Below, piece by piece: positions 1-42,995 of a stretch of DNA of 64,000 nt (position 1 is its first letter; every line of letters starts with the position of its first letter). This stretch comes from Octopus vulgaris (taxonomy: Eukaryota). Under the pieces are notes generated by a model. It was not told where the DNA came from, did not search any database, and worked only from the letters and a program-made list of their open reading frames with translations. Location of the stretch: positions 186,001-250,000 of the forward strand of contig OX597827.1 in the NCBI GenBank assembly GCA_951406725.2, written 5' to 3'. The translations under genes were made by a program, and so were the position numbers.

Positions 1-227
1 AGGATTCTGCCTTTTCGAGTCAGGTTGCCTAGTGGGTAAGATGGGTCAGCACGTTGTTAAGGTTTGGGAGAAGCAGCTGCTATCTCTAGCGTTCGGGTCG
101 GGCTGTGTTGAAGGATCCATACCGCTGAAGGGTCTCCATCTGAGCGAAGAGAAGGTAGGTGCCTTTATTTCGAATCTCTCGCACACACCACAAGCTATTT
201 CGGCACTCCATATAAGACGTCACCACA
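1..227 (+). repeat. 5' LTR (partial) of the Gypsy element
   Basis: Ends GACGTCACCACA (216-227), the 11/12 inverted match of the 3' LTR start TGTGATGACGTC; followed by a TGGCAGCG PBS-like motif. Confidence 0.85.
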
Positions 228-992
228 ATGGCAGCGAAAATCAGGATTGCCAGCGACATCATCAGACCCTTTAATGGTGAAGGCGATGTAGTGGTCTGGA
301 TTCGTAAAATCAGGGTAGTGGCAAGACTGCAAGGTATAAGCGATGTGGCAAGTCTTATGGCGCTGTATTTGGAAGGGAGCGCGTTGACGCTATATCTTGA
401 GATGGACGAGGAAGAACGTCTGAGCGAGGAAAAGATAGAGCAACGTCTGAGGGATGCCTACACAGAGTGTGAATACACAGCTTTTGCTAAGCTGGGTACG
501 ATTAGATGGACGGGAGGACAGGTGGACGAATACGCAGCAGAAGTCAGAAGGTTAGTGACGCTGGCTGGGTTTACAGGAGAAGGGCTGGAGAGAGCAGTGC
601 GACTGGCGTTTGTAAATGGGTTCCCCGACGATGTAGGGATTCACCTACAACGATTGCCCGGGATTAAAAAGATGGCACTGAGCGAACTTGTGACTCAAGC
701 CCGCATGTTGACGCGACACTCTGGACAGAAGGCGATAGTGATGGCGGTGGCGGAGGTGAATAAAGACGGACGACGACTGGAGAAAGACGTACAGAAGCCT
801 ACCATGCAACGACAGCGGCCGTTCTCAGGTCGGTGTTTTAGATGTCAGGGGTCGCACATGGCGCAGGACAGTACGCAACCGTGGTCCGTTTGCCATCGAT
901 GCAAGCAGACAGGGCATATCGCCCGTGATTGCGACCAGGGAAACGACCGCGGGGAAGTTGCTGCCTCTCGAACTTTCCCCACAAACGAGTAG
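228..992 (+). CDS. gag: Gag of the Gypsy element
   Basis: Open 254-aa ORF with C-terminal zinc knuckles CFRCQGSHMAQDS (degenerate) and CHRCKQTGHIARDC. Confidence 0.9.
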   Translation: MAAKIRIASDIIRPFNGEGDVVVWIRKIRVVARLQGISDVASLMALYLEGSALTLYLEMDEEERLSEEKIEQRLRDAYTECEYTAFAKLGTIRWTGGQVDEYAAEVRRLVTLAGFTGEGLERAVRLAFVNGFPDDVGIHLQRLPGIKKMALSELVTQARMLTRHSGQKAIVMAVAEVNKDGRRLEKDVQKPTMQRQRPFSGRCFRCQGSHMAQDSTQPWSVCHRCKQTGHIARDCDQGNDRGEVAASRTFPTNE

Positions 993-3733
993 AGGCGCTA
1001 TTGGAGACGCTGCCATTAATTGACGTGGAGGCCGAGGGGAAGACGTTCAAGGCCCTCGTGGATATGGGCTGTACGACCACCCTTGTGACTTCAAGGGTGA
1101 CGAAGAAATGGAACAGGGCAAGTAGTGTCCGGGCGGTCGACGGCAGCGAAATCCATTGCAGAGGCAGCAGCAAGGTAGAGATAGTGGTGCGTGGCGCGAC
1201 ACTAAGGCTGCAGGTAATTGTGGCTGAACGCGTGATAGATGGGGTTGATGTGGTGATGGGGATGGACGCCATCAACCGCCTCGGTGGCGTCAGTATTGTG
1301 GGAGATGAGGTCATGTTCGGAAGCGTGGGGGCATCGTGCACTGCGAGTCAGGATCGCCAGAGAGAGCAGATCCCCGCGAGGGACTGCGCCGCTTACACCA
1401 TCGAGGACAAAGACTTTCAGGTGGCGTTCGATGGTCAGTGGTGGATGATAGAGTGGCGATGGAAGGACGAGCCCCCGATGCTGAAAAACAGAGTGAGCTG
1501 TTACCAGCATACCCTGAAAGGCCACGCCAGGGTTTAGTTTGAAGACGAGGTGGAGAGGTGGATCGAGGAAGGGGTCCTTGTCCCTTGGGAGGAGGAGGTA
1601 GCGGGCGGTGCTACTCCTGATGGCGGTGGTGCCTCTACGAAGGGAAAAGTCAGACCGGTGCTGGACTTCAGGGAGCTAAACCAGCATATATCGTGTCACA
1701 CGGGAGGTGAGGCGACAGACGTTTGTGGCGAGACGTTACGTGCGTGGAGACGGTCGACCAAGGCAGCGACGATTGTCGACTTGAAATCAGCATACTTGCA
1801 GCTCCATGTGAGCGACAAACTGTGGCGATATCAGCTGGTGCGGTACAAAGGCCGGACGTACTGTTTAACCAGGCTGGGTTTCGGGCTGAATTCCGCTCCG
1901 AAGATCATGGCGGCAGTGCTTAAGTCCGTCCTAGGGAAAGACGGCAAGATTAGAAAGGCCACCAGCTCCTACATTGATGACATTTTGGTGGACGAAACTG
2001 TAGCGCCAGCCAACGAGGTAGTTAGACATCTGGAGAAGTTGGGACTGATTGAGAAGCCACCGGAGTCGATGGAAGGAGGAGCCACGCTGGGGCTGAAGCT
2101 GCGAAGAGATAGATCGGGTGAATTGGTGTTCTGGAGAGGGAATGAAATCCCAGAGCTGAGTTCCAGCGTCGCTGGATGGCTGTGCACGGCGTGCAGTTAC
2201 ATCAAGAGACGAGCGGAGGGGGAGAGTTGGAGCGACAAGGTGGGAGAAGGGACGGTGGCGATGATGCAGGAAATCCGAGAGAGGACGAGAGCGGAAGACC
2301 CGGTCAGGGGGAACTGATACGTGCCCAAGACGGAATGCGGGACCGTCTGGTGTGATGCTAGCAGTATAGCGATAGGGGTTGTGTTGGCAATCGAAGGGGC
2401 TGCGGTGGAGGACGCGGCCTGGCTTCGGAAAGCAGATGACTTCAACCACATCAATGTCGTTGAATTAGATGCGGTGCTGAAAGGGCTGAACTTGGCCCTG
2501 AAATGGGGGCTGCGCACAATTGAAATCCGGATGGATTCAGCCACTGTGCTTGGCTGGGTAGGATCAGTGATCACCGGTGAAAGGAGAGTGCAGACGAAAG
2601 GTGCCGCGGAGATGTTAGTGAAGCGCCGTCTAGGAGTTCTAGGTGAATTGATCACCGAGTTCGGACTGAAGCTGAACGTGGTTTTCGTGCCTTCGGAGAA
2701 AAACAGGGCGGATGCACTGACTAGGGTGAAAAGAGCGTGGTTGGAAGAACCGGAGGAGGCCCGGAAAGGGATAGCTGTGGCGTGTCGGTTGGATGACTCT
2801 GAACTGAAGAGACTGCATGCTATGCATCACCTGGATGTGGACAGGTCCCTGTATCTGGCGAAGAAAGTTGATGCTGACGTCACTAGGAGAAGCATCCGGA
2901 AAGTGGTCGGGAGCTGCGACAGGTGTCAGTCCATCGACCCTGCTCCGTGTGGGCATGAGCAGGGAAACCTTTCGGTGGAGCACAACTGGAAAAGACTAGC
3001 TGTGGATGTGACGCGCTACCGTCAGGGAATGTATCTCCCCATGGTGGACTGCGGGCCGGGCCGGCTGGCCATTTGGAGGGAGTTGAGAACGGGCATTGCT
3101 GACGAGATCGCGCAGATCTTGAACGGGATATTTTTAGAGAGAGGTCCCGTGGAAGAACTGCTGATGGACAACGGGGCGGCGTTTCGTTCGGAAGCATTGA
3201 GGGTTATGCTTGAGCGGTGGAAGGTGCGTCGCTTGTTCAGAGCAGTGTATAGGCCAAGCGGTAACGGGATCGTAGAGAGGCACCATCGGACAGTCAAGGC
3301 CATAGCGGAAAGAGGGCACATTTCGCCACTTGAAGCAGTTTTTTGGTACAACTTGTCTCCTCAATCCGGACAAACTGAAGAATCTGTGCCGCAGAGAGTT
3401 GTATTTAAATATGAATGGAGGCACCCGAGCAAAGCGCCGGAGGGCCACGAGGAAGAGAAGGGACCCGTTTGCATGAAAATAGGGGAGGAAGTCTGGCTTA
3501 AGCCACCAAAGGCGCGCTGTACGTCTCAATGGAGCAGAGGAACGGTGACGGCGGTCAATTCCAAAAACAACGTCTCCGTGGATGGGATGCCGCGACACGT
3601 CTTGGACCTTCGCAGGATTATCGCTTCGACAGACGACGATTGTGGAGAGGAGGAGAACAAGGTGCCCAGCTTGAGAAGATCTCGACGCGCAAGGCGCCCT
3701 CCCGGTTGGATGGTGGACTACGACATGGAGTAG
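938..3733 (+). pseudogene. pol: Pol (protease-RT-RNase H-integrase) in the -1 frame to gag, with in-frame stops at 1535 and 2315
   Basis: Motifs ALVDMG, RPVLDFR, RLGFGLNSAP, YIDD, WCDAS, H-H-C-C, LMDNG, NGIVERHHR; the three ORF pieces share one frame. Confidence 0.92.
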
Positions 3734-3766
3734 AGAGATTGTGATCTTTAAGATCAGGGTGGAGTG

Positions 3767-4041
3767 TGTGATGACGTCAACAGCTGGGCAGCTGACCGGA
3801 ACTTAGGGTTGACCGGAAGGGGCAGCGGTGATGCGCGCGCAGCGAGGGAAGATTCTGCCTTTTCGAGTCAGGTCGCCTAGCGGGTAAGACGAGTCAGCAC
3901 GCTATTATGGTTTGGGAGAAGAAGCTGCTATCTCTAGCGTTCAGGTCGGGCTGTGTTGAAGGATCCATTACCGCTGAAGGGTCTCCATCTGAGCGAAGAG
4001 AAGGTAGGTGCCTTTATTTCGAATCTCTCGCATACACCACA
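3767..4041 (+). repeat. 3' LTR of the Gypsy element, lacking the last 35 bp
   Basis: Starts TGTGATGACGTC after AGGGTGGAGTG; matches the 5' LTR up to the internal CACCACA. Confidence 0.88.
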
Positions 4042-4840
4042 GATTGATTTGATGGAATTACAAAATTCAACGTTGATATGCGCTTTAAATGTCTCTGAAA
4101 GAAGCAGACAGTAAGGTACTATCCATCTATTGTCAGCTTCAAATTTCCCTATGGTTAAGATCGAGCCTCTGTCGCATGGCTTCCTGCACCTATACAGAAG
4201 GTACCCGTTTTGAGCAGCTTGAGTATGGGACACGAATTTTTTTGGATAATTCTTAGAGCATACACCATTTATCAAGCAATCTTTCCTTGTGTAGGCAAAC
4301 CCACAAGGGCCATGGAGCATATTAGACTTCACTATGCCATGGAGTTCACTATCAACGCCCGGATCAGGTATTTCAGCAAAAATTAGCCTGTCTATGCCAT
4401 TTGTATTTATTTTCTGACTTAACCATAGAAGTGTGTGTACGTGAGGCATGTCCCTCTTTTGCCACTCAATAGTGAACATGAAGCTTTTAACATGGCCAAA
4501 TATTTGGCCATTGGTGAAGAGGTCCTTGAATTTAAGTAGTTCAAGTCTAAAAACTCTCGCAATGACATCAGGCTTATCATGGGCTTGTTGACCTGGCTGA
4601 AGACTCACTTATATTTCATTCCACCTGGCATTACAAGTGAAGGTAATGAAAAGGTCGGGCCCACCGTAGTGCCGAACGTAAATCATGGTGTCTTACGTAC
4701 ATTCGTGCATATATAGAGGACTACCAGTAAAGGAAGACGTAAGTATGCACAATTGGCCTATCCTTCCAGGGGCAACATCGTTATTGATGCTATCCTTGAG
4801 ATGGATGTACTTTGCAGCTCGTAGCTTTGCCTGATTGAAT
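4042..4840 (-). mobile_element. Helitron Rep (HUH endonuclease) fragment, cut by the Gypsy insertion
   Basis: Motifs GSPLYMHE, GPDLFITFTCN, IEWQKRDMPHVH (HUH), MLHGPCG, DNRWIVPY, HINVEFCNSIKSI. Confidence 0.93.
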
Positions 4841-4868
4841 AGTAGCAGTCTAAGTAAGTGAGTTAGTT

Positions 4869-5117
4869 AAAAAAGAAATGGAAGAAAGCAGCCTGAATGT
4901 TGGGTATGTAAGTGCCTGATTAAAGGACGAAGTAAATGGTTCAATGCAGGAATGTGGTTGGTGGGGTCAAGCCCATTCCACGTCCATTCATTTTTTTCAT
5001 TTTCATCCGAAATTATAATGCATTTATTCATCTATGTAATCACATCCAATAAGTCCTCGACCCCTATTTGCCCGTGTATTCTCCCCTCTTTGTTTAACCC
5101 TTGTGGTTTGAATAAAA
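4869..5117 (+). mobile_element. Short 3' remnant of an L1/Tx1-type element inserted in the Mag 5' LTR
   Basis: Starts right after LTR GTTAGTT; 3' UTR motif GGGGTCAAGCCCATT plus T-rich tract resembles the units at 33010 and 33213; ends AATAAAA. Confidence 0.5.
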
Positions 5118-5131
5118 TCATCGTGCTAGTT

Positions 5132-7003
5132 CCACTTTGTGTTAAAAAGCGTATTTGTAGTAAGTCACTCTGTTAAATTAATTGCTGTATTGTTGAATTG
5201 CTGTTTATTCTACTTGTTTTGTGTTGAACAACACTTTGTTTTGCTGCCTTACAGCAGTTTTATTGACGTGTTCCCTCTTGTTTGAAGAGGGTAGCATAGT
5301 TTTAAAAAATGGAGTACGAAAATCTGAGTTCTTCCGAGGAAGAACTGCTGAAAGCAATTTCTGTGAAAGACAAAACAGAAGAAAAAATTAACTTTGCGAC
5401 CGTGACCAAAAGCCACGACAAAGAAATTGATGTAAAGGAACTTAGTAAATACAAGAATATGCTTCGTAGGGAGAGGCACAACATAACGGTGTCCTCTCCC
5501 GCAAGAAGTATTACAGAAAACCAAAGAAAAGAAATGATAATCTATGGAACTTAATCTGTCAAAATCAAGAAAATCGACTGAATGACTACAAATCAAATTG
5601 AAAAGGCGTTAAAACCCATCTGGCAGAGAATTTCTTACCTTGCCAGAGGAAGAGAGTTTGGAACGGTAGAGGTACTGTTCCGAGATGAAGCAACTGCCAG
5701 GCTACACTCGGAAACCCCCTTAAAAACTGACGAGGTGGTACTTCTGCCCATATACCATGGAAGACGTGTAGAAGACATACCCCCGGAAATAAATGTGGCT
5801 TGGCTAGTGGCTGCTAAACTGCTGGGCATGCAAAAAAAGATAGTGGCCCTCCAAGCTACCAGAACTCCACATAAAAATTGGCAAGGGCAGAGCCTGGATA
5901 TGGTAATCCAGGCAGCCCTGGAGAACCTAGAAAATATGGTAGAAACCATTACACTCAAAGATGTAATACTCAGGCTTAGAGAGGAGAACAGGATCCCTTG
6001 TTGTTGCAAATGTGGCCAAAAAGGCCACATTAGAGTGGAATTTCCTCCACCGCCCGTAAAGTCACAAGAGGCACCTGTGATCGTAAAAGAAACTGCACCT
6101 CCACCGCCGGTGAGAACCAGCGGAAGAGAGATCAGCACAGAGGAAGGAGGAGAAAATAAAACCAAAGACAGGTGGGAAACTGCAGGAAAGAAGAGCAGAA
6201 AGAGGAAAAAAAAGGCACAATCTGTAAATGATAACCCCCATCCCACATCCACCCGACTCCCACTTAGACCCACACTGCTCCACCCTTCTCCTGCAGACAC
6301 TAACTTTCATCCTACCCCTTCTGACACTGACAAATTAACCACAAGCGCACAATCTTTTCGGTTTGAACGGCAGTTTTTTCTAGCGGTGTCATATGAAATT
6401 GTCACCCATAATTATGACCCTAGTATCGATCTATTGCATTTCAATCTGTTTTAGGGTTAGGGTAAGGGGTGGGGGAAGGGTATTTTTTTTTCTTCACAAA
6501 TGTAAAAAAACCCAATCTGTTTCTTAAACGAGGGACATATTCATACGGCACAGAATGTTTTTTACCTCAATAGACGTCAGTGATTGGTTGAAATTGCAGA
6601 AATTGAAGAAAGACAACAAATATCTTACAAACTATAGAATTTTCTCAATAAAGCCAAGAGAAAAAGATGTTTTATAAACACATTCTACCAGTATACGAAG
6701 TTTAAAATTTTTTAGTTACCTAGAAATTATGTTAAAAACTGCCGTTCAAACCGAAAAGATCTGCAAAAGAAAATCAACACCAGTTGTATACTAACAACGG
6801 TAGATTACAACGAACTTCTTAAAGACTTTAATATAGACATTCTATGTGGTGAATAAGGTTTAAAAGTGTTTTGAAATAAGTAAATTATCGGGTATAACAA
6901 AGCCCGGATGTGGGGCCTAGTGGTTTCATTTCATTTTTCATTTCATTATTTAATTAATCCTTTTCATTCGATTTTTTTTTGTCTCCACTGTATTTTCGTC
7001 TGT
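5132..7003 (+). mobile_element. ORF1-only L1/Tx1-like unit (ORF about 5309-6856, disrupted)
   Basis: RGREFGTVEV, LLPIYHGRR, IPPEI, CCKCGQKGH; C-terminal VDYNELL; no RT between the stop codon and the 3' UTR motif CCACTGT..TTTT.GTCTGTT. Confidence 0.7.
6352..6760. mobile_element. MITE with 27-bp TIRs inserted in the ORF1-like gene
   Basis: ATCTTTTCGGTTTGAACGGCAGTTTTT ... AAAAACTGCCGTTCAAACCGAAAAGAT. Confidence 0.85.
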
Positions 7004-7039
7004 TGCAGTGTATTCGTTTATCCATAAAGATATAACATC

Positions 7040-7052
7040 TGGCGACGAGGAT
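7040..7052 (+). promoter_or_regulatory. Primer-binding site, tRNA-Ser(GCU)-like
   Basis: TGGCGACGAGGAT 2 nt after the LTR end; complementary to the ...ATCCTCGTCG-CCA tRNA 3' end; second copy at 8427-8439. Confidence 0.8.
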
Positions 7053-7092
7053 CGTTCGAAACTCACATTGGTTATTTGACAATTTTTGCGTC

Positions 7093-9350
7093 ATGGAAAA
7101 TCTATTAGCCGCAGTAGTACAGCTTCAAGAGAAGCAACAGGAACGACTACAGGAATTGCAAATACAAATACAACAACAACAATACCAGTAACAACAACAA
7201 CAATTAACTGAGTTACAGTCGGTGAAGTCCGACGGCGTGGCTAACAAAATTTCTGAATTTACGTATAATCCGGAGGAGGATATTACGTTTCCCGTGTATT
7301 ACAGAAGATACGAGGAAATTTTTAACAACGAGTGCAAGTCATAGTTGGAGGAGCAGAAAGTAAGGCTTTTACTACTCAAAGTAGCTCTTGCCGAACACGA
7401 GCATTACTGTAACTTTATCCATAAGGATATTGTTATGAGTAGGTCAATTCGGGAAACAAATGCTATGACCTACTTTGCTCGTTGTAGTCTGAAAGTCTGG
7501 AATACAAAGTTATTGTCCTTTGTTCCGTCAGATTCTGGAAGGATTAATGAGTTTTGAGGCGACCTTTGGCCTTGTGCCGGTCAGGGAAAGTTCGAGGAAG
7601 CTACCCTTTAAAAAGCGAACGAGCTGTGAGTTTGGGACAGTCGGCCGGCAGCTCTAGCAGAGACGGGACTGATACGGGGGTGGTCAGTTGAGAAAGACAG
7701 ACAGACAATGTGAGGGATGACAAGGAGAGAATGACGGTGAATGTGAAAGAGGAGGACAGGCGGATAGGATTACCGCGAGAGGCGGCGACAGCGTAGAGGA
7801 AGACAGACAGACAGATAAGATTAAGGAGCTAAGAGAGAGGGACTACGGTATGAGGGCACTGGCTATTGTGTAAAGACATTGTGAAAAGAACGTAACGGTA
7901 TGTGTTTATTTATGCTTTGATATGTGGGAAAAAAAAGAAGGAAAAAGAAAGAACAGTGCTAAAAGAAAAAGAAAGAACTGTTAAAGAAAGAAGGAGAAAG
8001 ACTCTAATGTAGACTTTAAAGAACTTTGAACTGTATCGTTAATGTGAACGTTATTTGTTTTAATTGATCTGAACTGTATATTGAATCTGCATGCTTTAAT
8101 TTGATTGCACGTATGTTCTTTAATGTATACCTGATGTATCTTTGATTTATTTGATGTTGTAATAATTGTATAAACTGTTGTTAAATGTAGCCAATTGCCT
8201 TCCGCCGTCTCTCTCTGTATCTCTTCCTGTTGTTGTTATCTCCGTTCGCCGGTCTTGCCGTGTTCGCTGCCGCCTTTCCCCCCACCGAATTCTCTCTCTC
8301 CCTGAGTCCGTGGCGAATTCACCGATCGATCGGGCCGGTAAATCGTCGTCGCTCGACTTGGTAGGGTCCCGGGTTTTTTCCCGAAGAGTTTGAGCGACGG
8401 CAGGTGGTTCGTAACAATATAATATCTGGCGAGGAGGATCGTTCGAAACACACATTGGTTTTGACAATTTCTGCGTCATGGAACTGCTTTTTTTGTGATA
8501 GAAGTTCATTATTCAACACCAGAATGGAGTGTTGAAACAACAAAAAATGAGGAGGAGGATTTTATCACCAACACCAGAGCAGTCAACCGTATGTGCGAAA
8601 ATTTCAAACTCCAGGAATCTCACTCATGATATGGTCAAATCACTTATCTTCGTGCAAGGACTTATAGCCCCTGAAGATAGAGAAATTCTGACCAGGATTT
8701 TTTCGAATGTGGAGCAAGCGAACCAGGATTTATCTCTACAGACCATCTTAAACACGATGTGAAAAAATACAAGATAAAAACTTAGCGAAAATTCAAATGC
8801 ATCTCGGGAAGCACAATAAAAAAATGTCAGGCCCCAATCCGTGTTATGGTTGTGGAGGCCTACACGTCAAAAAGGATTGTCCATTTAAAAACAAAAAGTG
8901 CTATAGTTGTCAGAAACTGGGACACATGAGTTCTCACTGTAGAACAAGACTACGAGCTCGAACACAAAAAGTTCTAAGGTGTTTACAGCGAAGACTGATT
9001 GCGACGGAAAAAAGAAAATTTGTGCTCGTAAAAATAAATGATGTGAATACCAAATTACAGTTAGACTCTGGTAGTGACATCTCGATTATAAATGCGGATA
9101 CTTGGAAAAAGTTGGTAAACCGAGATTACGTAAAACAGCGAAAATAGCGTGTGGTGTAACAGGCAATAAATTTCATTTCAATGGCAAAACATGTACTGAT
9201 GTCACATTTCGAGAAGAGACACGCGAAGCAAAATTATTCGTTGTGGATAATACAATCAATCTGTTTGGCACAGATTGGTTAGAACTATTCGGTTTATGGC
9301 ACCTCCCCATAAATCCTTACTGCAATAACATAAATGGTTGTTCCGTTTAA
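7093..9350 (+). pseudogene. gag: Mag-type gag and protease, fragmented and interrupted
   Basis: Q-rich N-terminus, FTYNPEEDITFPVYYRRYEEIF, KVRLLL, LIFVQGL, CYGCGGLHVKKDC, CYSCQKLGHMSSHC, LQLDSGSDISII. Confidence 0.85.
7431..8416. mobile_element. Solo LTR (986 bp) of an unrelated LTR element
   Basis: TGTTATGA...TCGTAACA termini; ATAT duplicated at 7427-7430 and 8417-8420; removing it restores an LTR-end plus PBS sequence. Confidence 0.85.
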
Positions 9351-9419
9351 AAACAAGTCTTCGGAACTGCTGATGAAAAAATTGAAAAGAAAATGTTCTC
9401 GTAAGTGTTATCAGAGGAT

Positions 9420-11890
9420 TTAAGTCTATGAAGAAAGGCGAAGATCTATTTCCAAGTAAGTGAAAACGCTATACCTGTATTTAAAGCAAGCAGAGAAGTA
9501 CCGTTCGCAACAATTGAAACCTTAAATGAAGAGTTGGACAAACTCGAAAAGAGTGGAGTCATCAAAAAGGTGGATTGCTCGAAGAGGGCGGCACCCACGG
9601 TATGTATTTTGAAAAGAATAATAAGATCAGGCTGTGTGCAGATTTCTCTACAGCAGTGGTACTCTAACTGGAATCCACGGTCCCCTGGGGGACCGCGAAG
9701 GGATGCTGAAGTATCGTGAAAACGGGTGGGTTGCGACAGTTAAGTTACAAAATTTCAGGACTTTTAGCTTTTCGCATGTTATCATCCTTTTTTGTCGTTG
9801 GCCTCAAAAACCCACGCCACTCCTAATCGCTCATTTGCTAATCACACTTGTTATACAACAAGTGTGATTGGCCGATTGAAAATATGCGAGTATAACTGTT
9901 GATCGTGCATGTGCTGTCGGTATTCAACTCTCACATGATTCACCACTCCACTATTGCAGTTCACACATTTGCATGTCTCTTGCCGTCGTTATCCTCATCG
10001 GTGCATGTTCCAGCATGACTGTGCACTTTGCCAGACACCAATTCTCATCCCGCATGGTGGCTGGGCTTTATGCGAAATAAACATGTGATGTAGTTATATT
10101 AAATTGGTTTACTGAATTTTATCTTTTTTATAATGCCGTCAGAAAAGAAAATGAGATATGCCGAATGAGATATGAGCGGTTCATAGTCCGGAAATTATAG
10201 TACATGAATGCATATAATTTTTTCCATGTTGATTACCCTGCATTTTATAAGGGGCCGTGAATCCTCGAAAAAACTAAGGGGACTGTCACGTAAATCTTTT
10301 TGAATCACTGTTCTACAGGATTGAACCACTGCTTAAAAACATAACAGCATCCACTCCCGACTGAAGGGGACATTTTTTTCTAAGTTAAATGGTGGAAAAT
10401 TATTTTCCAAATTAGGTCTGTCTGAAGACTATTTACAAATACAAGTAAATGAAAAATGCTCAAAATATTTGACAATAAATACACACAAAGGATTGTACAG
10501 ATACACATGATTACCTTTTGGATTAAAAGTTGCACCAGCAATATTCCAGCAGATCATGGATACTAAGTTATCTGATTGTGAATTTGCAATCCCTTACTTG
10601 GACGATATTTTGATCAGGAGTAATTCTTGCGAACAGCATGTTGAACATAAAAACTGTGTTTAAGAAAATTAAAGTTTTGGGGTTCACTTTGAGCGAAGAC
10701 AAATGTGAATTCTTCTACCCCAAATTAAGTACTTAGGGCAATTATTTAATAAAAGTGTAAGACGTCCTGACCCGTCGAGGGCAGACGCAATAAGGAATAT
10801 GACTGCGCCGACAAATATTCCAACTTCACAAGCATTTCTTGGATCGGCAAATTATTATTCCTAATATTGCACGAGTTAAGAGCTTATTAAAAAACGACTT
10901 ATTAAAAAAAATGAGTAAAGTGGAATTGGTCCATTAAATGACAGAACACTTTTGATGCACATTATGATTTCAAAATGGTCATCACTGTAGTATCTGATGC
11001 TCCCGAGCACGGATTAGGTGCAGTTCTGCTTCATAAATACGAAGACGAAGTACAAAACCAGTGGTTCATGTTTCGTGCTCGCTAAAAGCGACAGAGAAGA
11101 GATATAGTTAAATTGAAAAGGAGGCCCTAGAAATTATTTTTACAGTTAAAAAATTTCACTGGTTTCTGCATGGCAGAAGTTTTTTTATTGCAAACAGACC
11201 ACAGACCTTTGCTGTTGATTTATTGGTCTAAAAAAGTGTTCCAACTACATTACAAAAAGATGTATAACAACAATTTCACGGCGAACATCCAGGAATGGCA
11301 AGGATGGGGGCTCTGATGAGGAGTTATGTCTATTGGCCGTCTACAGACCGAGATATCTAAAACTTGGTGAGAACCTGCCGAGGTTGCGCGCTCGGTAAAT
11401 ATCAATCGCGGCCAGAGATGGAGAACCCATGGTCAAGGTTACGCATTGACTATGCCATACCGGTAGACGGCGCTTACTACCTAATCATAGTAGATTGCTG
11501 TACCAAGTGGCCGGAGGTTTGCAGGTGCTATAGATCAACCTCTAAGACAACTATAAAGTTCTTATACGAATTGTTTGCACGATACGGTATCCCTAACACG
11601 CTAGTTTCAGACAACAGAACGTAGATCTCTGAGTATAAATTCAAGAACTTCGGTAAAAGACCTGCGATAAAGCATATTTTCACTTCACCCTACCACCCGA
11701 GGTCAAACGGGCAGGTAGAAAGATTTGTGGACACCTTTAAGAGGGCGTTAAGAAAAGCGAGGAATAAATTAAGTAAAGACGAAGCACTGACAAATTTCTT
11801 AAGAATATACAGAGTGACCACCCAATCAGGGAAGTCTCCCGCAGAATTGATAACCTATTAACAAAAAAAAAAAAAAGACGAAAAGAAAAC
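9420..11890 (+). pseudogene. pol: Mag-type pol (RT, RNase H, integrase core), many frameshifts and stops
   Basis: DFSTGLN, LPFGLKVAPAIFQQIMD, YLDD, VSDA, HPGMARM, PWSRLRIDYA, LVSDN, PYHPRSNGQVERFVDTFKRAL. Confidence 0.9.
9654..10310. mobile_element. hAT (Charlie-like) non-autonomous element
   Basis: CAGTGGT...ATCACTG termini; 8-bp TSD CTCTACAG/TTCTACAG; splits the RT DFSTG motif. Confidence 0.85.
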
Positions 11891-11894
11891 ACGA

Positions 11895-14800
11895 AAGAGC
11901 CAACGGAAAACGTCGAGATGGGTGATAAAGTGTATTTCAGAAAAGAAGAGCCAACGGAAAACGCCGAGATAGGTGATAAAGTGTATTTCAGAAAAGAAGA
12001 GCCGACGGAAAACGCCGAGATGGGTGATAAAGTGCATTTCAGAAACGAAGAGCCAACGGAAAACCCCGAGATAGGGGATAAAGTGCATTTCAGAAACGAA
12101 GAGCCAACGGAAAACGCCGAGATGGGTGATAAAGTGCATTTCAGAAACGAAGAGCCAACGGAAAACGCCGAGATTGGTGATAAAGTGCATTTCAGAAACG
12201 AAGAGCCAACGGAAAACGTCGAGATGGGTGATAAAGTGCATTTCAGAAACGAAGAGCCAACGGAAAACGTCGAGATTGGTGATAAAGTGCATTTCAGAAA
12301 CGAAGAGCCAACGGAAAACGTCGAGATAGGTGATAAAATGCATTTCAGAAACGAAGAGCCAACGGAAAACGTCGAGATGGGTGATAAAGTGCATTTCAGA
12401 AACGAAGAGCCAACGGAAAACGCCGAGATGGGTGATAAAGTGCATTTCAGAAACGAAGAGCCAACGGAAAACGCCGAGATGGGTGATAAAGTGCATTTCA
12501 GAAACGAAGAGCCAACGGAAAACGCCGAGATGGGTGATAAAGTGCATTTCAGAAACGAAGAGCCAACGGAAAACGCCGAGATGGGTGATAAAGTGCATTT
12601 CAGAAACGAAGAGCCAACGGAAAACGTCGAGATGGGTGATAAAGTGCATTTCAGAAACGAAGAGCCAACGGAAAACGCCGAGATAGGTGATAAAGTGCAT
12701 TTCAGAAACGAAGAGCCAACGGAAAACGCCGAAATGGGTGATAAAGTGCATTTCAGAAACGAAGAGCCAACGGAAAACGCCGAGATAGGTGATAAAGTGC
12801 ATTTCAGAAACGAAGAGCCAACGGAAAACGTCGAGATGGGTGATAAAGTGCATTTCAGAAACGAAGAGCCAACGGAAAACGCCGAGATGGGTGATAAAGT
12901 GCATTTCAGAAACGAAGAGCCAACGGAAAACGCCGAGATAGGTGATAAAGAGCATTTCAGAAACGAAGAGCCAACGGAAAATTCCGAGATGGGTGATAAA
13001 GTGCATTTCAGAAACGAAGAGCCAACGGAAAACGCCGAGATAGGTGATAAAGTGCATTTCAGAAACGAAGAGCCAACGGAAAACGCCGAGATAGGTGATA
13101 AAGTGCATTTCAGAAACGAAATGCCAACGGAAAACGCCGAGATAGGTGATAAAGTGTATTTCAGAAGCGAAGAGCCAACGGAAAACGTCGAGATGGGTGA
13201 TGAAGTGCATTTCAGAAACGAAGAGCCAACGGAAAACGCCGAGATAGGTGATAAAGTGCATTTCAGAAACGAAGAGCCCACGGAAAACGTTGAGATAGGT
13301 GATAAAGTGCATTTCAGAAACGAAGAGCCAACGGAAAACGTCGAGATAGGTGATAAAGTGAATTTCAGAAACGAAGAGCCAACGGAAAACGTCGAGATGG
13401 GTGATAAAGTGCATTTCAGAAACGAAGAGCCAACGGAAAACGCCGAGATGGGTGATAAAGTGCATTTCAGAAACGAAGAGCCAACGGAAAACGCCGAGAT
13501 GGGTGATAAAGTGCATTTCAGAAACGAAGAGCCAACGGAAAACGCCGAGATGGGTGATAAAGTGCATTTCAGAAACGAAGAGCCAACGGAAAACGCCGAG
13601 ATGGATGATAAAGTGCATTTCAGAAACGAAGAGCCAACGGAAAACGCCGAGATGAGTGATAAAGTGCATTTCAGAAACGAAGAGCCAACGGAAAACGCCG
13701 AGATAGGTGATAAAGTGCATTTCAGAAACGAAGAGCCAACGGAAAACGCCGAGATAGGTGATAAAGTGCATTTCAGAAACGAAGAGCCAACGGAAAACGC
13801 CGAGATGGGTGATAAAGTGCATTTCAGAAACGAAGAGCCAACGGAAAACGTCGAGATGGGTGATAAAGTGCATTTCAGAAACGAAGAGCCAACGGAAAAC
13901 GCCGAGATGGGTGATAAAGTGCATTTCAGAAACGAAGAGCCAACGAGAAAACGCCGAGATGGGTGATAAAGTGCATTTCAGAAACGAAGAGCCAACTTAA
14001 ACGAAGAGCCAACGGAAAACGCCGAGATGGGTGATAAAGTGCATTTCAGAAACGAAGAGCCAACGGAAAACGCCGAGATAGGTGATAAAGTGCATTTTAG
14101 AAACGAAGAGCCAACGGAAAACGCCGAGATGGGTGATAAAGTGCATTTCAGAAACGAAGACCAACGGAAAACGCCGAGATGGGTGATAAAGTGCATTTCG
14201 GAAAACGTGAAGAAACCAACGGAAAACGCCGAGATGGGTGATAAAGTGCATTTCAGAAACGAAGAGCCAACGGAAAACGCCGAGATGGGTGATAAAGTGC
14301 ATTTCAGAAACGAAGAGCCAACGGAAAACGCCGAGATGGGTGATAAAGTGCATTTCAGAAACATTTCAAAGAAAGAGCCAACGGAAAACGTCGAGATGGG
14401 TGATAAAGAGCATTTCAGAAACAAAGAGCCAACGGAAAACGCCGAGATGGGTGATAAAGTGCATTTCAGAAACGAAGAGCCAACGGAAAACGCCGAGATG
14501 GGTGATAAAGTGCATTTCAGAAACGAAGAGCCAACGGAAAACGCCGAGATGGGTGATAAAGTGCATTTCAGAAACGAAGAGCCAACGAGATAGGTGATAA
14601 AGTGAGAAACGAAGAGCCAACGAAAACGCCGATGATAAAGGTGATAACGGAAAACGCCGAGATGGGTGTGCATTTCAGAAACGAAGAGCCAACGGAAAAC
14701 GCCGAGATGGGTGATAAAGTGCATTTCAACGGAAAACGCCGAGACGCGAGATGTGATAAAGTGCATTTCAGAAACGAAGAGCCAACGGAAAACGCCGAGA

Positions 14801-15806
14801 TGGGTGATAAAGTGCATTTCAGAAACGAAGAGCCAACGGAAAACGCCGAGATGGGTGATAAAGTGCATTTCAGAAACGAAGAGCCAACGGAAAACGCCGA
14901 GATAGGTGATAAAGTGCATTTCAGAAACGAAGAGCCAACGGAAAACGCCGAGATGGGTGATAAAGTGCATTTCAGAAACGAAGAGCCAACGGAAAACGCC
15001 GAGATGGGTGATAAAGTGCATTTTAGAAACGAAGAGCCAACGGAAAACGCCGAGATGGGTGATAAAGTGCATTTCAGAAACGAAGAGCCAACGGAAAACG
15101 CCGAGATGGGTGATAAAGTGCATTTCAGAAACGAAGAGCCAACGGAAAACGCCGAGATAGGTGATAAAGTGCATTTCAGAAACGAAGAGCCAACGGAAAA
15201 CGCCGAGATCAGAAACGAAGAGGTGATAAAGTGCATTTCAGAAACGAAGAGCCAACGGAAAACGCCGAGATGGGTGATAAAGTGCATTTCAGAAACGAAG
15301 AGCCAACGGAAAACGCCGAGATGGGTGATAAAGTGCATTTCAGAAACGAAGAGCCAACGGAAAACGCCGAGATGGGTGATAAAGTGCATTTCAGAAACGA
15401 AGAGCCAACGGAAAACGCCGAGATGGGTGATAAAGTGCATTTCAGAAACGAAGAGCCAACGGAAAACGCCGAGATAGGTGATAAAGTGCATTTCAGAAAC
15501 GAAGAGCCAACGGAAAACGCCGAGATGGGTGATAAAGTGCATTTCAGAAACGAAGAGCCAACGGAAAACGCCGAGATGGGTGATAAAGTGCATTTCAGAA
15601 ACGAAGAGCCAACGGAAAACGCCGAGATGGGTGATAAAGTGCATTTCAGAAACGAAGAGCCAACGGAAAACGCCGAGATGGGTGATAAAGTGCATTTCAG
15701 AAACGAAGAGCCAACGGAAAACGCCGAGATGGGTGATAAAGTGCATTTCAGAAACGATGAGCCAACGGAAAATGCCGAGATAGGTGATAAAGTGCATTTC
15801 AGAAAG
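11895..15806 (+). repeat. 51-bp tandem repeat, about 75-77 copies, inside the integrase C-terminal coding region
   Basis: Unit GAAGAGCCAACGGAAAACGCCGAGATGGGTGATAAAGTGCATTTCAGAAAC encodes EEPTENAEMGDKVHFRN. Confidence 0.97.
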
Positions 15807-15854
15807 GATAAAGAAGGCTGAAAAGACGGTCGTGTATTTGGAAGTAGACTCTTT

Positions 15855-16254
15855 ACTCTCTCTTTTACTTGTTTCAGTCATTTGACTGCGGCCATGCTGG
15901 AGCACCGCCTTTAGTCGAGCAATTCGATCCCCGGGACTTATTCTTTGTAAGCCCAGTACTTATTCTATCGCTCTCTTTTGCCGAACCACTAAGTGTCGGG
16001 GCGTAAACACACCAGCATCGTTTGTCAAGCAATGCTAGGGGGACAAACACACAAACACACACACATATATACATATATATACATATATACGACAGGCTTC
16101 TTTCAGTTTCCGTCTACCAAATCCACTCACAAGGCATTGGTCGGCTCGGGGCTATAGTAGAAGACACTTGCCCAAGATGCCACGCAGTGGGACTGAACCC
16201 GGATCCATGTGGTTGGTTTGCAAGCTACTTACCACACAGCCACTCCTGCGCCTA
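15855..16254 (-). mobile_element. tRNA-derived SINE (GGCGCAGGAGTGGCTGTGTGGTAAG family)
   Basis: A/B box-like head on the minus strand; homologous copies at about 20885, 21220, 47760, 47910, 51495 and 61105-62430. Confidence 0.85.
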
Positions 16255-16257
16255 TGA

Positions 16258-16469
16258 TGTATGATGTATTTGATTAAAGGGTTACTTGGTCAACATAAGA
16301 CACATACAAAACCAACTAAGGAAGAGGCATAGCCAAGATCAGGAAGAAATTCCTATGGAAGTATTCTGTGAAATATTCGATGTAGCGGTACCAAAAGTAA
16401 TTGAGTCCCGTAGAATCAGCATAAGGAAAAGAAAGCAGACTGAACACCTTGAGATAATACCCAAACGAA

Positions 16470-16475
<6 letters not shown>
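16258..16475 (+). pseudogene. Remaining integrase C-terminus of the Mag element
   Basis: MMYLIKG...HIQNQLRKR...RRISIRKRKQTEHL; continues the GDKVHFR..W..G motif across the SINE. Confidence 0.7.
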
Positions 16476-16524
<49 letters not shown>

Positions 16525-16635
16525 ATGATCACATGACTGACCAGGCAATCAGATGTTGCTACACATCGCTGGTCACAATGCGCTTCGCATTGTTCTAGCC
16601 TTCAAACGACGCCACCTCGCTGGCTAAGCGAGCAG

Positions 16636-16700
<65 letters not shown>

Positions 16701-16745
16701 AAAAATTCTTTATTCTTTTGGAATACGAAGTCTCAAAAGAGGAGA

Positions 16746-16831
16746 TGTTGTGCGAGAGTACGACGCTCCCTGGCGAGAATGGACTGGACCACTATATATA
16801 AACATTAGCAGTCTGAGTAAGTGAGTTAGTT
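16746..16831 (+). promoter_or_regulatory. U3 part of the Mag 3' LTR with TATA box and initiator-like TTAGT
   Basis: TG start after the PPT; TATATATAAA at 16793-16802; TTAGTT about 30 nt downstream. Confidence 0.75.
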
Positions 16832-17690
16832 CGTGAGTCAGGGAATGGTGGTATTGATCACTCTACTTAACGAAGAGTTGAAGATTCTGGCCAAGGTTTT
16901 AGCAGAAACGTTGGTGAAAGTTGTGGATAGTATCGTCGTGGAGGCGCAAGCCAGCACCATCCCTGGCAAGACCATACACGATAATATCCACCTTAAACGC
17001 TATACCTTAGAAAGGATAAATAGGATTCCTGTCAATCCAAAGCCATTGATAGGGGAGACCATCGGCATCTGGTGGCGGTCCTCGAGGTGGCCGGTTTTGG
17101 CCCGACATTCCGCGGCCGGATCAATGCTTTATATAGCAACATCAAGTCAGTAATTCCGGTGAACAGTTTCTTTTCAAAGCTGTTCAGTATCGATCGCTCG
17201 GTTCGTCAAGGTTGTCCACTCTCACCACTGCTGTATGTATGGCTATCGAGTCACTACTGTGGAGATTGGAGGCGACAAGTGGAGACCTGCAAGATCTAGG
17301 GTATGGAAAGTCAGTCACAACATGTACGGACGATGTCACTGTCATTGTATCCAGGGACCAGGACCTATAGAGGGTAGGTGAGGCCCTAAAGGATTACGAA
17401 GCGGTGGCAGGAGCAAGAATTAACCGGGATAAGTCGGTCGGCTTGCAGCTCGGCACCTGGAGAGGCAAGTCGATGCCGTGCAACAGCGTCGTCGGGCGCT
17501 GGACAGACGATCCGGTGAAAATACTTGGAATCTGGTTTGGTCCAGACCTCCAGATAGAGAAGAATTGGAGCGAAGTTACGGGTAGGGTGGCGTCCATAAC
17601 TCAGACCTGGTCTGGTGGAGGCTATCCCTGAAAGGGAGGACGGAGGTAGCAAATGTGTTTAGCGCACTTGTCATTACCTACCGCCTAACC
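16832..17690 (+). mobile_element. 5'-truncated L1/Tx1-clade ORF2 (RT) fragment inserted in the 3' LTR
   Basis: ITLLNEELKILAKVLA, PGKTIHDN, GFGPTF, VRQGCPLSPLLY, TDDVT, INRDKS, VKILGIWFG. Confidence 0.9.
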
Positions 17691-39897: not shown

Positions 39898-40325
39898 AAA
39901 ATGTGCAGGACTTCCGAGAGTTCTGTGTGGAGATGGCTCTTATGACAAGTGCCGGGTTTCCGGGATTTCTGTATTGAGAGAGCTGTCTGGAAAAGTGCCG
40001 GATTTCCGGAAGCTCTATGTGGAGGTGGATGTTGGTAAAAGTGCCGGACTTCCGGGAATTCTGTGTGAAGGTGGCTGTCAGGCAAAGTGCCGGATTTCAG
40101 GTAGTTGTGTGGAGCTGGCTGTCAGGAACAGTGCCGGATTTCCGGGAGTTCTGTGTTGAGGTGGCTGTCGGGAAAATTGCGGGATTTCCGGGAGTACTAT
40201 GTGGAGGTGGCTAAGCACTGTTGGAAAGGCTTTTGCTCGCATTATCCTGTCCAGGCTACAACTGCTTGCTTCTCGAATTTATCCAGAATCGCAGTGTGGC
40301 TTTAGAAGAAACATATCAACGATTG
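39898..40325 (+). repeat. Inverted duplicate of 42881-43308 (43-bp minisatellite plus RTE junction)
   Basis: Near-identical reverse complement; the ORF track gives near-identical peptides at both sites. Confidence 0.93.
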
Positions 40326-40527
40326 ATCAATTTAATAAAGTTAAAAAAATATTAAAACACAGATTGGAAAAATAAAAGATTTTAACAATAAAATCCAAAT
40401 TTTTAATATTAGATGTTTATATTAAAAAATATAGTAAATTTTTTGTAAGAAAAAAATTACAATATATAGCCAAATGTTAAACTAAAATTCAGATTTAAAT
40501 ATTACAGAAAGTACCATATATATATAT

Positions 40528-40757
40528 ATAAATTAGTAATGCAATACTACAGTATTGCTTTCCAGTAAAGAATAGCCCGTGAGGGAAAAATACACAAAGT
40601 AGTAAATAATACGACATTAGCGTCGTATTATTACGTTCGCTATTTCCAGTAAATATCGGTACTTCGTTGTGCCATATATTTACTACTTTGTGTATTTTTC
40701 CCTCACGGGCTATTCTTTACTGGAAAGCAATACTGTAGTATTGCATTACTAATTTAT
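40528..40757. repeat. Perfect 81-bp inverted repeat with a 68-bp spacer
   Basis: 40528-40608 is the reverse complement of 40677-40757. Confidence 0.93.
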
Positions 40758-41118
40758 TGAAGCTTCTTCACCGTTTTCGTGCTGTTGGCGTTTCGGCGTT
40801 TCAGTCGAGTGTAATGGCTCTAATGTGGTAACATCTGAGATTTTGTCATGGTATATGCTTGGCTGATGAAGATAGAACAAGATTATGGGTGGCAGACATA
40901 TCTTGTAAAATCTGTAACCTGCAGGTCCCACATTATCCTTTTCCAGGTATTTCATCTTTCAGATGTTCTCCCTGGAGGTAAGACAATTTTTTCTAGTTTG
41001 TTGCACACACGCATTTTTGCTAATACACACGCGGTGGAGCTATACATTAGCGCCGTATTATTACGTTCGCTATTTCCAGTAAATATCGGTACTTCGTTGT
41101 GCCATATATTTACTACTT

Positions 41119-41188
<70 letters not shown>

Positions 41189-41464
41189 TACACACACATA
41201 CAAAGATAAATTGATAGATACAACTGAGTGGGCAAACAAAAATATGAGACACAGCCTAGTGCTTTTTTTATGTTGATAAGCCTGGTACTTATTCTATTAG
41301 TTTGTTTTTGTGAAACCAGTAAGTTATGTGGATGTAAATAAATTAACAGCAGTTGTGAAGCAGTGGTGAGGGAGAAACACAAAGACACACACATAGACTT
41401 ACATATATACATACATATATGATTGATTTGTTTCAGTTCCTGTCTACGAAATCCATATATAATG

Positions 41465-42995
41465 TTGTTGGCATCCTTTTTGTCTCGGGAGACAATGGAG
41501 TTGCGCATAAAATAATCTAGTCCGGCTTTTACATTTCATGTTCTAATACATCTCCTGCTGTGGCTGTGTAGTCCTATCCTGGACAAACACTCCCTCTGGC
41601 AGGTGCCGCAAATGTAACGAAGACTTTGCCTGGCTGGTTGTAATGTCATAGTTTCTTGTTGACGTCTTTTCTTGTCTTTCCATTTCTCCTCTCTCTCTAT
41701 GTCACTCCTTTGTGTCCCCTCTTTTACGGTACGTCTCCAATCTCCACGGTTGCTGGCAACTGCTTCCCAGTTGGTAATATTGATGTTGCAGGCATTCATG
41801 TCCCTTTTGCAAACATCCTTGTATCATAAGAACGGTCTTCCCACAGACCTAGGGCCCCTAGCAAGCTCTCCGTTGAGTATGTCCTTCGGGATTCTGCCAT
41901 CATCCATACGGCTAACATGTTCAAGCCATCTCATACATCTTTGTGTGAGGAGTGCAAACATGCTTGGTATTCCTGCTTGCTTGAGGACATCTTTGTTGGG
42001 GACATGATTCTGCCATTTGATGCGAAGGATTTTCCGGAGGCAGCGCAGGTGAAAGATATTTAGGCGACGCTCTTGGCGTGTGTGTGGCGTCCAAGTCTCA
42101 CTTCCATACAGTTGAGTGCTAAGTACACATGCCTGGTAAATCTTCATTTTTGTGGTCTTGGTCAGCTTATTGTTGTCCCATGTCCGTTTGGAGAGTTGGG
42201 CCATCACAGCAGCTGCCTTGCCAATGCGTATATTGAGCTCAGCATCTAGGGATAGGTTGTAGGTGATGGTAGAGCCAAGATAGGCAAACTCCAACTCCTG
42301 TAGTCTGTGGTCTCCAATATGTATGTTTGGGATGTCCAATGTAACCTGACCCATGATGTTGGTCTTCTTGAGGCTGATAAATAAGCCAAAGTTGCTACAT
42401 GCTTGCTCAAAACAGTTGATGAACCTTTGTAGGGCTTCTTTTGTGTGTAATACCAGAGCAGCAGCAGCAGTAGCAGCAAATAGCATCTCCTTGATCAAGA
42501 CGCTTCTGATTTTGGTTTTGGCATGCAGACGCGAGAGATTGAACAGTTTCCCATCACTTCTACTGTGCAGAAACACTCCATCATCTGATGTCTCAAAGGC
42601 ATGTGACAGCAGCTGCGAGAAGAAAATGCCAAATAATGTAGGAGCAAGGACACAACCTTGCTTTTCTCCATTTTTTATTTGGAAGGCGGCTGATGTTGAA
42701 CCATTGTGTTGTATGGTGCCTTGCATATCATCATGGAAAGATTTGATGATCCTCAGCAGCTTTGGTGGACATCCGATTTTTTGGAGCAGGATGAAGAGGC
42801 CTTTTCTACTTACCAAGTCAAAGGCCTTTGTCAGATCAATGAAGGCCATATATAATAGCCTTTTCATGGAGAATATCATGTCAATAGTTGATATGTTTCT
42901 TCTAAAGACACACTGCGATTCTGTATAAATTCGAGAAGCAAGCAGTTGTAGCCTGGACAGGATAATGCGAGCAAAGGCCTTTCCAACAGTGCTTA
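41465..42995 (-). mobile_element. RTE-clade LINE, 5'-truncated, with a long open RT frame
   Basis: FIDLTKAFD, KQGCVLAPTLF, EMLFA(DD lost), YLGS, LYGSETWT, RWLEHVSRM, CGTCQRECLSRIGLHSH. Confidence 0.94.

Follow-up and report, generated by a model that had tools for sequence, protein, structure and literature searches.

Targeting of a Gypsy LTR family by LINEs is real and genome-wide in Octopus vulgaris. Based on the junctions described below we favour, with a confidence modestly better than even, a reading in which several Tx1-type families insert in sense orientation and with nucleotide precision at, or 4 nt past, the point where transcription of Gypsy LTRs is predicted to begin, and in which this site has likely been kept for the promoter that it offers.

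The window, i.e. the whole analysed stretch of 64,000 nt, contains a Gypsy element with LINE insertions in both LTRs (all features given are on the plus strand unless stated otherwise). The 26-nt motif that the initial annotation had placed at 4843-4868 and 16806-16831 is present at both positions, its sole exact matches in the 2.8-Gb genome. One position of the motif is a G in most copies of the LTR family, termed LTR1 here, and a T in both window copies, and this common variant makes it very likely that the two are the LTRs of a single element. TTAGT, which had been proposed as an initiator, turned out to be a private variant of the window element. The 5' LTR is reduced to a U3 remnant that has lost its TATA box (4838-4868, corresponding to LTR1 positions 56-86 in the alignment to the natural empty copy L004), the rest of U3 being absent from the 20 kb upstream, and to the end of U5 (7000-7037, 95% to LTR1 233-270). 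The primer-binding site follows at 7040-7052, in agreement with the earlier placement of LTR end and PBS at about 7004-7052; it lies 3' of the LTR in many 5' copies too, and it probably matches tRNA-Ser. The decayed internal region (gag, protease, pol; 7053-16745, 78-85% to the two-LTR copy L201), presumably of the Mag lineage, contains zf-CCHC and Asp-protease matches, is interrupted by unrelated insertions and harbours a 51-bp tandem array at ~11,800-15,800. The 3' LTR is as clear as first described: the PPT (16739-16745) adjoins the TG start at 16746, and U3 (16746-16835, 90% to LTR1 1-90) carries a TATA box at 16795, so that the TATA spacing in PMC1779604 predicts +1 at ~16828. The target thus has the hallmarks of Gypsy/Ty3 elements, i.e. 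TG...CA LTRs, PBS, PPT and a gag zinc knuckle followed by a protease, and further two-LTR copies are L195, L075 and L087.

Both window LTRs hold Tx1-type sequences in sense orientation, as the initial annotation stated, but the assignment of the pieces had to be revised. In the 5' LTR a 5'-truncated LINE of family B, comprising the last ORF2 codons and the 3' UTR (4869-5121, 81% to positions 4823-5072 of the full-length copy L082), ends at the fixed junction 5121/5122. LTR1 positions 87-100, the start of R, follow at 5122-5135 as a target duplicate that precedes the next element on its 5' side, an arrangement that recurs in L105, L106 and L107. This next element, described before as an ORF1 unit, is a separate, non-autonomous ORF1-only Tx1-type element of type A (5136-7000, 82% and 78% to L164, which is contained whole in an LTR1 copy). 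Its ORF1 is broken from ~5311, a MITE-like sequence with 27-bp inverted ends was inserted later (6352-6760, no strand assigned, 85-96% to copies in seven other loci), and the final ~50 nt of the type-A element have been deleted, as has most of R/U5. The 3' LTR holds a broken RT fragment (16836-17690, 80% to L082 3297-4050) with 67-78% amino acid identity to an intact sister ORF2; the window lacks the 3' part of this LINE and R/U5 of the 3' LTR. The remnant at 4869-5121 and the RT fragment, described at first as different sequences, are two truncations of one family, B. Similarity had also been said to stop at one base in both LTRs, but the 3' LTR matches an empty copy up to 16835, 4 nt further, where these last 4 nt fit the LINE too (microhomology). 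Moreover, both endpoints are 5' junctions, which span LTR positions 39-98 across copies, and it is the LINE 3' junction that is fixed.

The motif constitutes the U3 end of LTR1, a 270-bp Gypsy LTR, and runs on into R/U5 in empty copies, i.e. it is part of intact LTRs rather than of the LINE. Using a tail query devoid of target sequence, the family-B 3' end was found joined to LTR1 at 86/87 in 35 of 40 copies, and 15 of 20 exact tail matches genome-wide are joined at the same nucleotide; both fractions exceed the >20% of flanks in one sequence that Kojima uses to define a target preference. The union of both samples has 41 of 49 tails at this junction, an enrichment with a chance probability of ~1e-97 if 1000 LTR copies are assumed, and one of the eight off-target tails shows a clear 12-bp duplication. 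The 3' junctions are nucleotide-fixed and in sense orientation, which bears out this part of the first interpretation. The 5' ends vary, with 27 distinct truncation points among 30 family-B junctions, and full-length copies are flanked by 12-18-bp duplications; tandem re-insertion into the re-created target site is also observed. Viewed from the LTR side, 23 of 40 LTR1 matches anchored in R/U5 are filled, all in sense orientation, 15 by family B and 8 by other tails, which join at 82/83. Four elements (L201, L075, L087, L317) have one LTR filled and the partner empty, and in L321 the two LTRs are filled by different elements. Paired LTRs were thus filled independently, indicating that insertion came after Gypsy integration; for L098, L187, L188, L293, L167, L164 (with a +1-type insert in one LTR) and L184 upstream extension did not reach the partner LTR. 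Finally, the LTR1-LINE junction recurs as loose contig ends in three public runs (9, 6 and 6 contigs), which were located with a stretch of a sister family (L264) rather than with family B and which are represented by contigs only, none being on record as RNA.

Mouse CAGE data give -31/-30 as the optimal TATA position (PMC1779604), and on this basis the insertion site is predicted to coincide with the start in the ORF1-only families and to lie 4 nt past it in family B. Non-B Tx1-type tails, mostly ORF1-only, join LTR1 4 nt before the family-B site, at TATA+31 or predicted +1, and family B, the best-sampled one, joins at predicted +5 rather than +1. The offset between TATA box and junction is 31 in L164, L184, L098, L168, L368, L321 and L320, 32 in L293 and 30 in L180. 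Altogether at least six different tail types use the site in the LTR start region, and ORF1-only elements with an LTR target include L164, L184, L098, L320 and L321. The proposal of an initiator-targeting LINE is thus supported as regards the position relative to the predicted start, with the 4-nt difference of family B, but not as regards a single family. The ORF1-only relatives L164 and L168 (79% at the amino acid level) reside in unlike sequences at equal TATA distance, which simple sequence recognition does not explain; most of the other ORF1-only relatives checked for a TATA box are 5'-truncated or have no detectable duplication.

We label these LINEs Tx1-type from their architecture and target specificity; none of the proteins retrieved in searches bears the name Tx1. 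Family-B ORF2 has an N-terminal APE, an RT and a C-terminal zinc finger: pieces of L082 match Exo_endo_phos (weakly), RVT_1 and zf-RVT, and the intact sister ORF2 of L264 matches all three above cut-off. The RT of L264 is nearer to L1, with an E value of 2.8e-69 to human L1 ORF2p over residues 10-875 versus 6e-22 to R2. ORF1 carries a CCHC knuckle, detected as zf-CCHC in L264, just below cut-off in L098 and degenerate in the window copy. Sister families in the same genome are directed to (TC)n, to (TCTA)n and to one constant position in a SINE, the latter with a 14-bp duplication, and the closest intact relative of family B (78% amino acid identity in the RT) is the one in (TC)n. Thus, the idea that the whole clade aims at start sites was discarded, as its young sisters use microsatellites or a SINE instead and a SINE sharing the tail is dispersed: of its 21,687 exact tail-pattern matches 30 were examined, none of which is followed by the LTR1 target.

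According to the scheme we favour, the LINEs would use already resident genomic LTRs as insertion targets, target-primed reverse transcription being the likely mechanism. The APE endonuclease would nick the template strand after LTR1 position 86 in family B and after 82 in the other families, each family presumably recognising a short sequence specific to it, in the manner of the sister families. The full-length elements would then be transcribed from the LTR, i.e. promoter capture is likely, and the RNA would begin with the first ~15-30 nt of R. This leader may aid annealing and fix the 5' junction; the LTR2 inserts L320, L321 and L293 have a common R-like 5' leader carrying changes of its own. 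The ORF1-only elements would be mobilised in trans. As the LINE polyadenylation signal precedes R-U5, a filled LTR is predicted to be no longer a source of replicable Gypsy RNA, and the site has probably been retained because it places the LINE right behind a borrowed promoter.

Alternatively, the site may be read by position, i.e. a LINE particle tethered to the Pol II pre-initiation or open complex, e.g. by ORF1p binding TBP as proposed for TRE5-A at tRNA genes, would nick +1 whatever the sequence. We regard this as possible, though clearly on the doubtful side. Support for it comes from LTR2, where the site is located at TATA+31/32 both in long-U3 copies (three copies, position 96) and in short-U3 copies (two copies, position 114). 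U3 of the short variant is 18 nt shorter and the junction shifts by 18 nt along with the TATA box; the sites at 96 and 114 are unlike in sequence, yet each sequence is present in both variants. Empty LTR2 copies are of the short variant in 4 of 29 cases (Fisher p = 0.03, with tail family confounded with U3 variant), and the junction of L368 was predicted before its sequence was examined. Moreover, the offset is 30 for a single insertion in the unrelated LTR3, ORF1-only elements that are highly divergent (31-79% at the amino acid level) converge on 31, and TRE5-A, including its ORF1-only derivative, provides a precedent (PMC5391098). On the other hand, the short-variant copies number two, one being the seed, and a search for more junctions at position 114 returned six matches, comprising four empty LTRs, the seed and a single new insertion that lacks U3; the position-114 insertions L385 and L283 have lost U3 and are uninformative on TATA distance. 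The tails at 96 and 114 differ, so that each may belong to a family with sequence specificity that has evolved alongside one particular LTR subfamily, and the sites of LTR1 and long LTR2 agree in 9 of 12 letters. L169, L170 and L352, which are ORF1-only with a visible 5' end, have no clear TATA box at -31, a mariner target has only a weak TATA-like word, and none of the insertions was shown to lie at the start of a host gene. LTR3, filled in 1 of 22 copies, the seed itself, is not supported as a regular target, which counts against the scheme favoured above. The full scenario, in which a LINE clade docks on the TATA-bound complex, inserts at the LTR +1 and seizes the promoter, leaving the host element cut off, is equally tentative.

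A simpler option is that sequence-specific Tx1 families settled on an abundant repeat as a safe haven and are driven by promoters of their own, the overlap with the start site being incidental. This fits the sister families in microsatellites and inside a SINE, places without an evident Pol II start, the (TC)n preference of the closest intact relative of family B, and what is known of crocodilian Tx1 elements (PMC4494074). Against it stand the junctions at TATA+30 to +32 in as many as three LTR families, the displaced site in LTR2 and the leaders that resemble R, and we consider it unlikely. Capture during Gypsy reverse transcription, in which minus-strand strong-stop DNA ending at +1 primes copying of LINE RNA, would account for sense junctions exactly at +1 without sequence recognition. 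However, it predicts identical inserts in both LTRs and is largely refuted by the four half-filled elements and the different inserts in the two LTRs of L321 and of the window element; as similar 14-18-bp duplications also occur at the mariner and SINE targets, it is very improbable. A single amplified LTR-LINE chimera or an assembly artefact could explain the identical duplicates L055/L056 and the common 5' junction of L023 and L031, which lie on different contigs and could mean that an LTR was copied once after being filled, but it is refuted by the variety of truncation points and tails and by the recurrence in independent runs, leaving it next to no probability.

LINEs that target other transposons are already known, and the claim that the system is undescribed was too strong. 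Kojima 2015 (PMC4494074) describes the crocodilian elements Tx1-8_Crp and Tx1-4_AMi as favouring particular groups of LTR retrotransposons, and these two, Tx1-Mar and Tx1-9_AMi are, like the families here, Tx1-type LINEs with a preference for other transposons and tandem insertion; SINEU transcription from the flanking target is suggested as well. The main text links this preference to no LTR position, TATA box or start site, although the supplement may differ, and in contrast to the crocodilian elements at least six tail types share one site here and a large share of LTR copies is filled. Xenopus Tx1L in Tx1D, Kibi/Koshi in (TC)n/(TTC)n and Keno in U2 are sequence-specific APE-type LINEs too (PMC4494074), whereas here it is an LTR that is targeted, at its predicted Pol II start. 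TRE5-A of Dictyostelium resembles our case as an L1-group LINE with orientation-specific insertion at a fixed promoter distance, and its ORF1-only derivative TRE5-A.2, which is moved in trans, parallels the ORF1-only elements. TRE5-A inserts upstream of Pol III genes, at a distance of ~47 bp with some spread and through a proposed ORF1-TBP contact (PMC5391098), whereas the octopus site is nucleotide-exact and at or just past a predicted Pol II +1. R2 in 28S rDNA depends on target transcription, and co-transcribed target sequence strengthens its specific integration (PMC4494074); R2 differs in its restriction-like endonuclease and Pol I host-gene target, and co-transcription with the target is a prediction for the octopus elements. 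L1-Tx1 families are listed for an octopus in PMC13282606, in whose accessible text neither 'target' nor 'nested' occurs. Neither Tx1 insertions at an LTR start site nor a LINE landing site that tracks the TATA box were found in the openly accessible papers searched, the main text of Kojima 2015 among them.

What appears to be new is a landing spot that seems to track the TATA box. The system offers a clear natural example of a transposon that parasitises another one: per 40 LTR copies sampled in one family, 14-23 hold a LINE at one promoter position. Should the promoter be the reason why the site is kept, this would explain LINE expression and possibly the curbing of a Gypsy family. If it is read by position instead, as the LTR2 shift hints, the LINE would be aimed at Pol II start sites, unprecedented in the literature searched, and would be for Pol II what TRE5-A and Ty3 are for their targets. 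As young, intact sister ORF2s with different targets coexist in the same genome, what determines the choice of target can be put to a direct test.

The 26-nt motif at window positions 4843-4868 and 16806-16831 has no further exact match across the whole 2.8 Gb genome; its assignment to an LTR by the initial annotation is borne out. A genome search with window 16720-16900 gave 40 scored matches among 318 candidates, and the flanks of the 29 other loci read reveal a 270-bp Gypsy LTR (LTR1, numbered after L004, a naturally empty copy). There the motif forms the end of U3 and continues into R/U5. As both window copies carry T where most copies carry G, they very likely belong to a single element as its two LTRs; the sequence that separates them matches the two-LTR copy L201 by 78-85%. 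In the 5' LTR, U3 is reduced to LTR1 56-86 (4838-4868), with the TATA box lost, followed by the 253-nt tail of a LINE of family B (4869-5121), LTR1 87-100 (5122-5135), a MITE-bearing ORF1-only element (5136-7000), a deletion reaching to the end of U5, the U5 end itself (7000-7037) and the PBS (7040-7052). In the 3' LTR, U3 1-90 (16746-16835) runs into a family-B RT fragment (16836-17690), beyond which no more of this LINE or of the LTR is found inside the window. Similarity had been said to stop at the same base in both LTRs: by the window anatomy these endpoints are a pair of 5' junctions, at LTR 86 and 90, and the invariant junction is the 3' end of the LINE, not its 5' endpoint.

The place expected for the 5' part of U3 is occupied by an unrelated Gypsy element (1-4041; 190-bp LTRs at 3-192 and 3851-4041, 94% identical) and a Helitron fragment (Helitron_like_N, 3934-4840). 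A 1-kb stretch (7419-8483), unmatched among the loci fetched, has the LTR end and PBS once more at its own end (8417-8483). At the end of the Gypsy pol, a unit of 51 bp (17 codons) is repeated in tandem ~75 times (11800-15800), and the first part of this array is open for 729 aa. At 39899-43308 a 428-bp inverted repeat, 99% perfect and with 2.5 kb between its arms, adjoins a 46-bp tandem array.

The 3' end of the family-B LINE is mostly joined to one LTR1 position. With the LINE 3' UTR alone as query (40 scored matches among 81 candidates), 35 of 40 matches run into LTR1 at 86/87 and five lie off this target; the 35 include the window copy, the duplicate pair L055/L056, a copy without its last ~15 nt and a copy split by a later insertion. 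An exhaustive search for the exact tail pattern, C being excluded at the last position, found 20 matches genome-wide, 15 of them on target (chance ~1e-97, assuming 1000 LTR copies), and the union of both searches has 41 of 49 tails on target. In three public runs, 9, 6 and 6 contigs have the B tail as a loose end at this position; in one run, 5 contigs have an A-type tail. The 30 5' junctions with visible U3 comprise 27 distinct LINE start points, the LTR side spanning 39-98: the insertions arose independently, with 5' truncation as is usual for LINEs. L023 and L031, on two contigs, share one 5' junction (LTR 89, LINE 4137), which may be a copied filled LTR or a microhomology hot spot. L082, a full-length but broken copy of 5.07 kb, sits in a lone LTR and has ORF1 and an APE-RT-zinc finger ORF2. 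ORF2 falls into the L1 group, its nearest named relatives being from Argonauta (62%) and Sepia (51%); "Tx1-type" is a provisional label, membership in Tx1 proper being presumptive.

Anchoring in R/U5 (40 scored matches among 241) gave 23 filled and 12 empty LTR1 copies, the query counted, and with U3 as the anchor 14 of 40 were filled, one of them the window copy, both being ranked samples rather than genome fractions. The remaining five R/U5 matches all stem from a single locus that has been duplicated on contig C11 (L145-L147, L153, L191; ~40-kb spacing), with 16 nt inserted at the target site. In L025 the insert at this point measures 15 nt, and in L024 another kind of element, with inverted repeats and a ~12-bp duplication, lies close to this point. 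Fifteen of the 23 filled copies carry the B tail at 86/87, 4 nt past the site of the other tails, and eight carry at least five other Tx1-type tails at 82/83, the start site predicted from the TATA box 31 nt before it. Most traceable 82/83 elements are ORF1 only (L164, L184, L098, L187), with 14-18-bp duplications, and L186 has ORF2 remains; the seven closest matches of the type-A tail, from such an ORF1-only element, are all in LTR1. Pairwise identity is 85% for B copies and 86% for LTR1 R/U5 copies, filled and empty alike, so family B and LTR1 were active long ago, at about the same time.

Two other LTR families bear on the start site. LTR2 (40 matches, 6 filled) has long U3 variants and variants 18 nt shorter. 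Long copies are filled at 96, three with visible U3 and TATA-to-junction offsets of 31, 31 and 32 (one TATA box mutated), short copies at 114, two with an offset of 31 each, and both sequence sites are present in long and short variants alike. Among 29 empty copies, 4 have the short U3 (p = 0.03 by Fisher's test, with two filled short copies); L168 prompted the idea of a shift and L368 was then fetched as a test. Two more insertions at 114 are without U3, and one of 22 LTR3 copies is filled, with an offset of 30. The main rival explanation, which we consider rather unlikely, is that the elements would be tethered by position to the Pol II initiation complex, by analogy to TRE5-A at Pol III genes (PMC5391098).

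Other targets count against a general start-site rule. The RT of family B as query identified young sister families with intact ORF2s of 1138-1150 aa (L262-L269, L270-L277, L278-L281) and three different targets: in this order, (TC)n (8/8 read), a fixed site ~23 nt inside an abundant SINE (7/8, 14-bp duplication; the eighth copy is a variant at similar sequence elsewhere) and (TCTA)n (4/4 read). In L273 (2568-6300, minus strand) a variant of the family that targets the SINE lies in tandem at similar sequence, immediately before a promoter-like stretch with NRF1-, initiator- and ETS-like words, possibly a host gene promoter. ORF1-only elements (L175-L179, L246, L249) have repeatedly entered one site, in sense, in a mariner-like transposon: it lies ~20 nt short of the transposase ATG and 161-168 nt from the inverted repeat, shows a ~17-bp duplication and has a weak TATA-like word only. 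Some other ORF1-only relatives are at sites without clear TATA. The SINE, LTR1 and long-LTR2 sites have similar initial letters, which favours recognition by sequence. A very abundant, dispersed SINE (L202-L231) shares its ~60-nt tail with ORF1-only Tx1-type elements (21,687 exact matches of the 20-nt type-A tail pattern) and hence probably depends on a Tx1-type partner; none of the 30 matches read is followed by the LTR1 target.

We lean, slightly beyond even chances, towards site-specific target-primed reverse transcription, which family-specific endonucleases would drive at a site that may be retained because it lies directly behind the LTR promoter, an R-derived leader possibly aiding insertion. 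Three long-LTR2 elements have a common 5' leader, R-like with its own changes, as expected if their ancestor was transcribed from the LTR. The order of events speaks against capture on strong-stop DNA. In L201 and L317 only the 5' LTR is filled, in L075 and L087 only the 3' LTR, and in L321 and the window the two LTRs carry different elements, which places insertion after integration. Disabling of the Gypsy element is predicted from the position of the LINE polyadenylation signal.

Kojima 2015 (PMC4494074) reports Tx1 families whose preferred targets are Mariner, Harbinger and LTR retrotransposons, and suggests that such elements may be transcribed from their flanks; no paper in the literature searched, the main text of that one included, places such insertions at the start site of an LTR. 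The targeted insertion is real and varies a kind already known, its potentially important part being the possible tracking of the TATA box; the sister families with intact ORF2s are ready material for studies of target choice.
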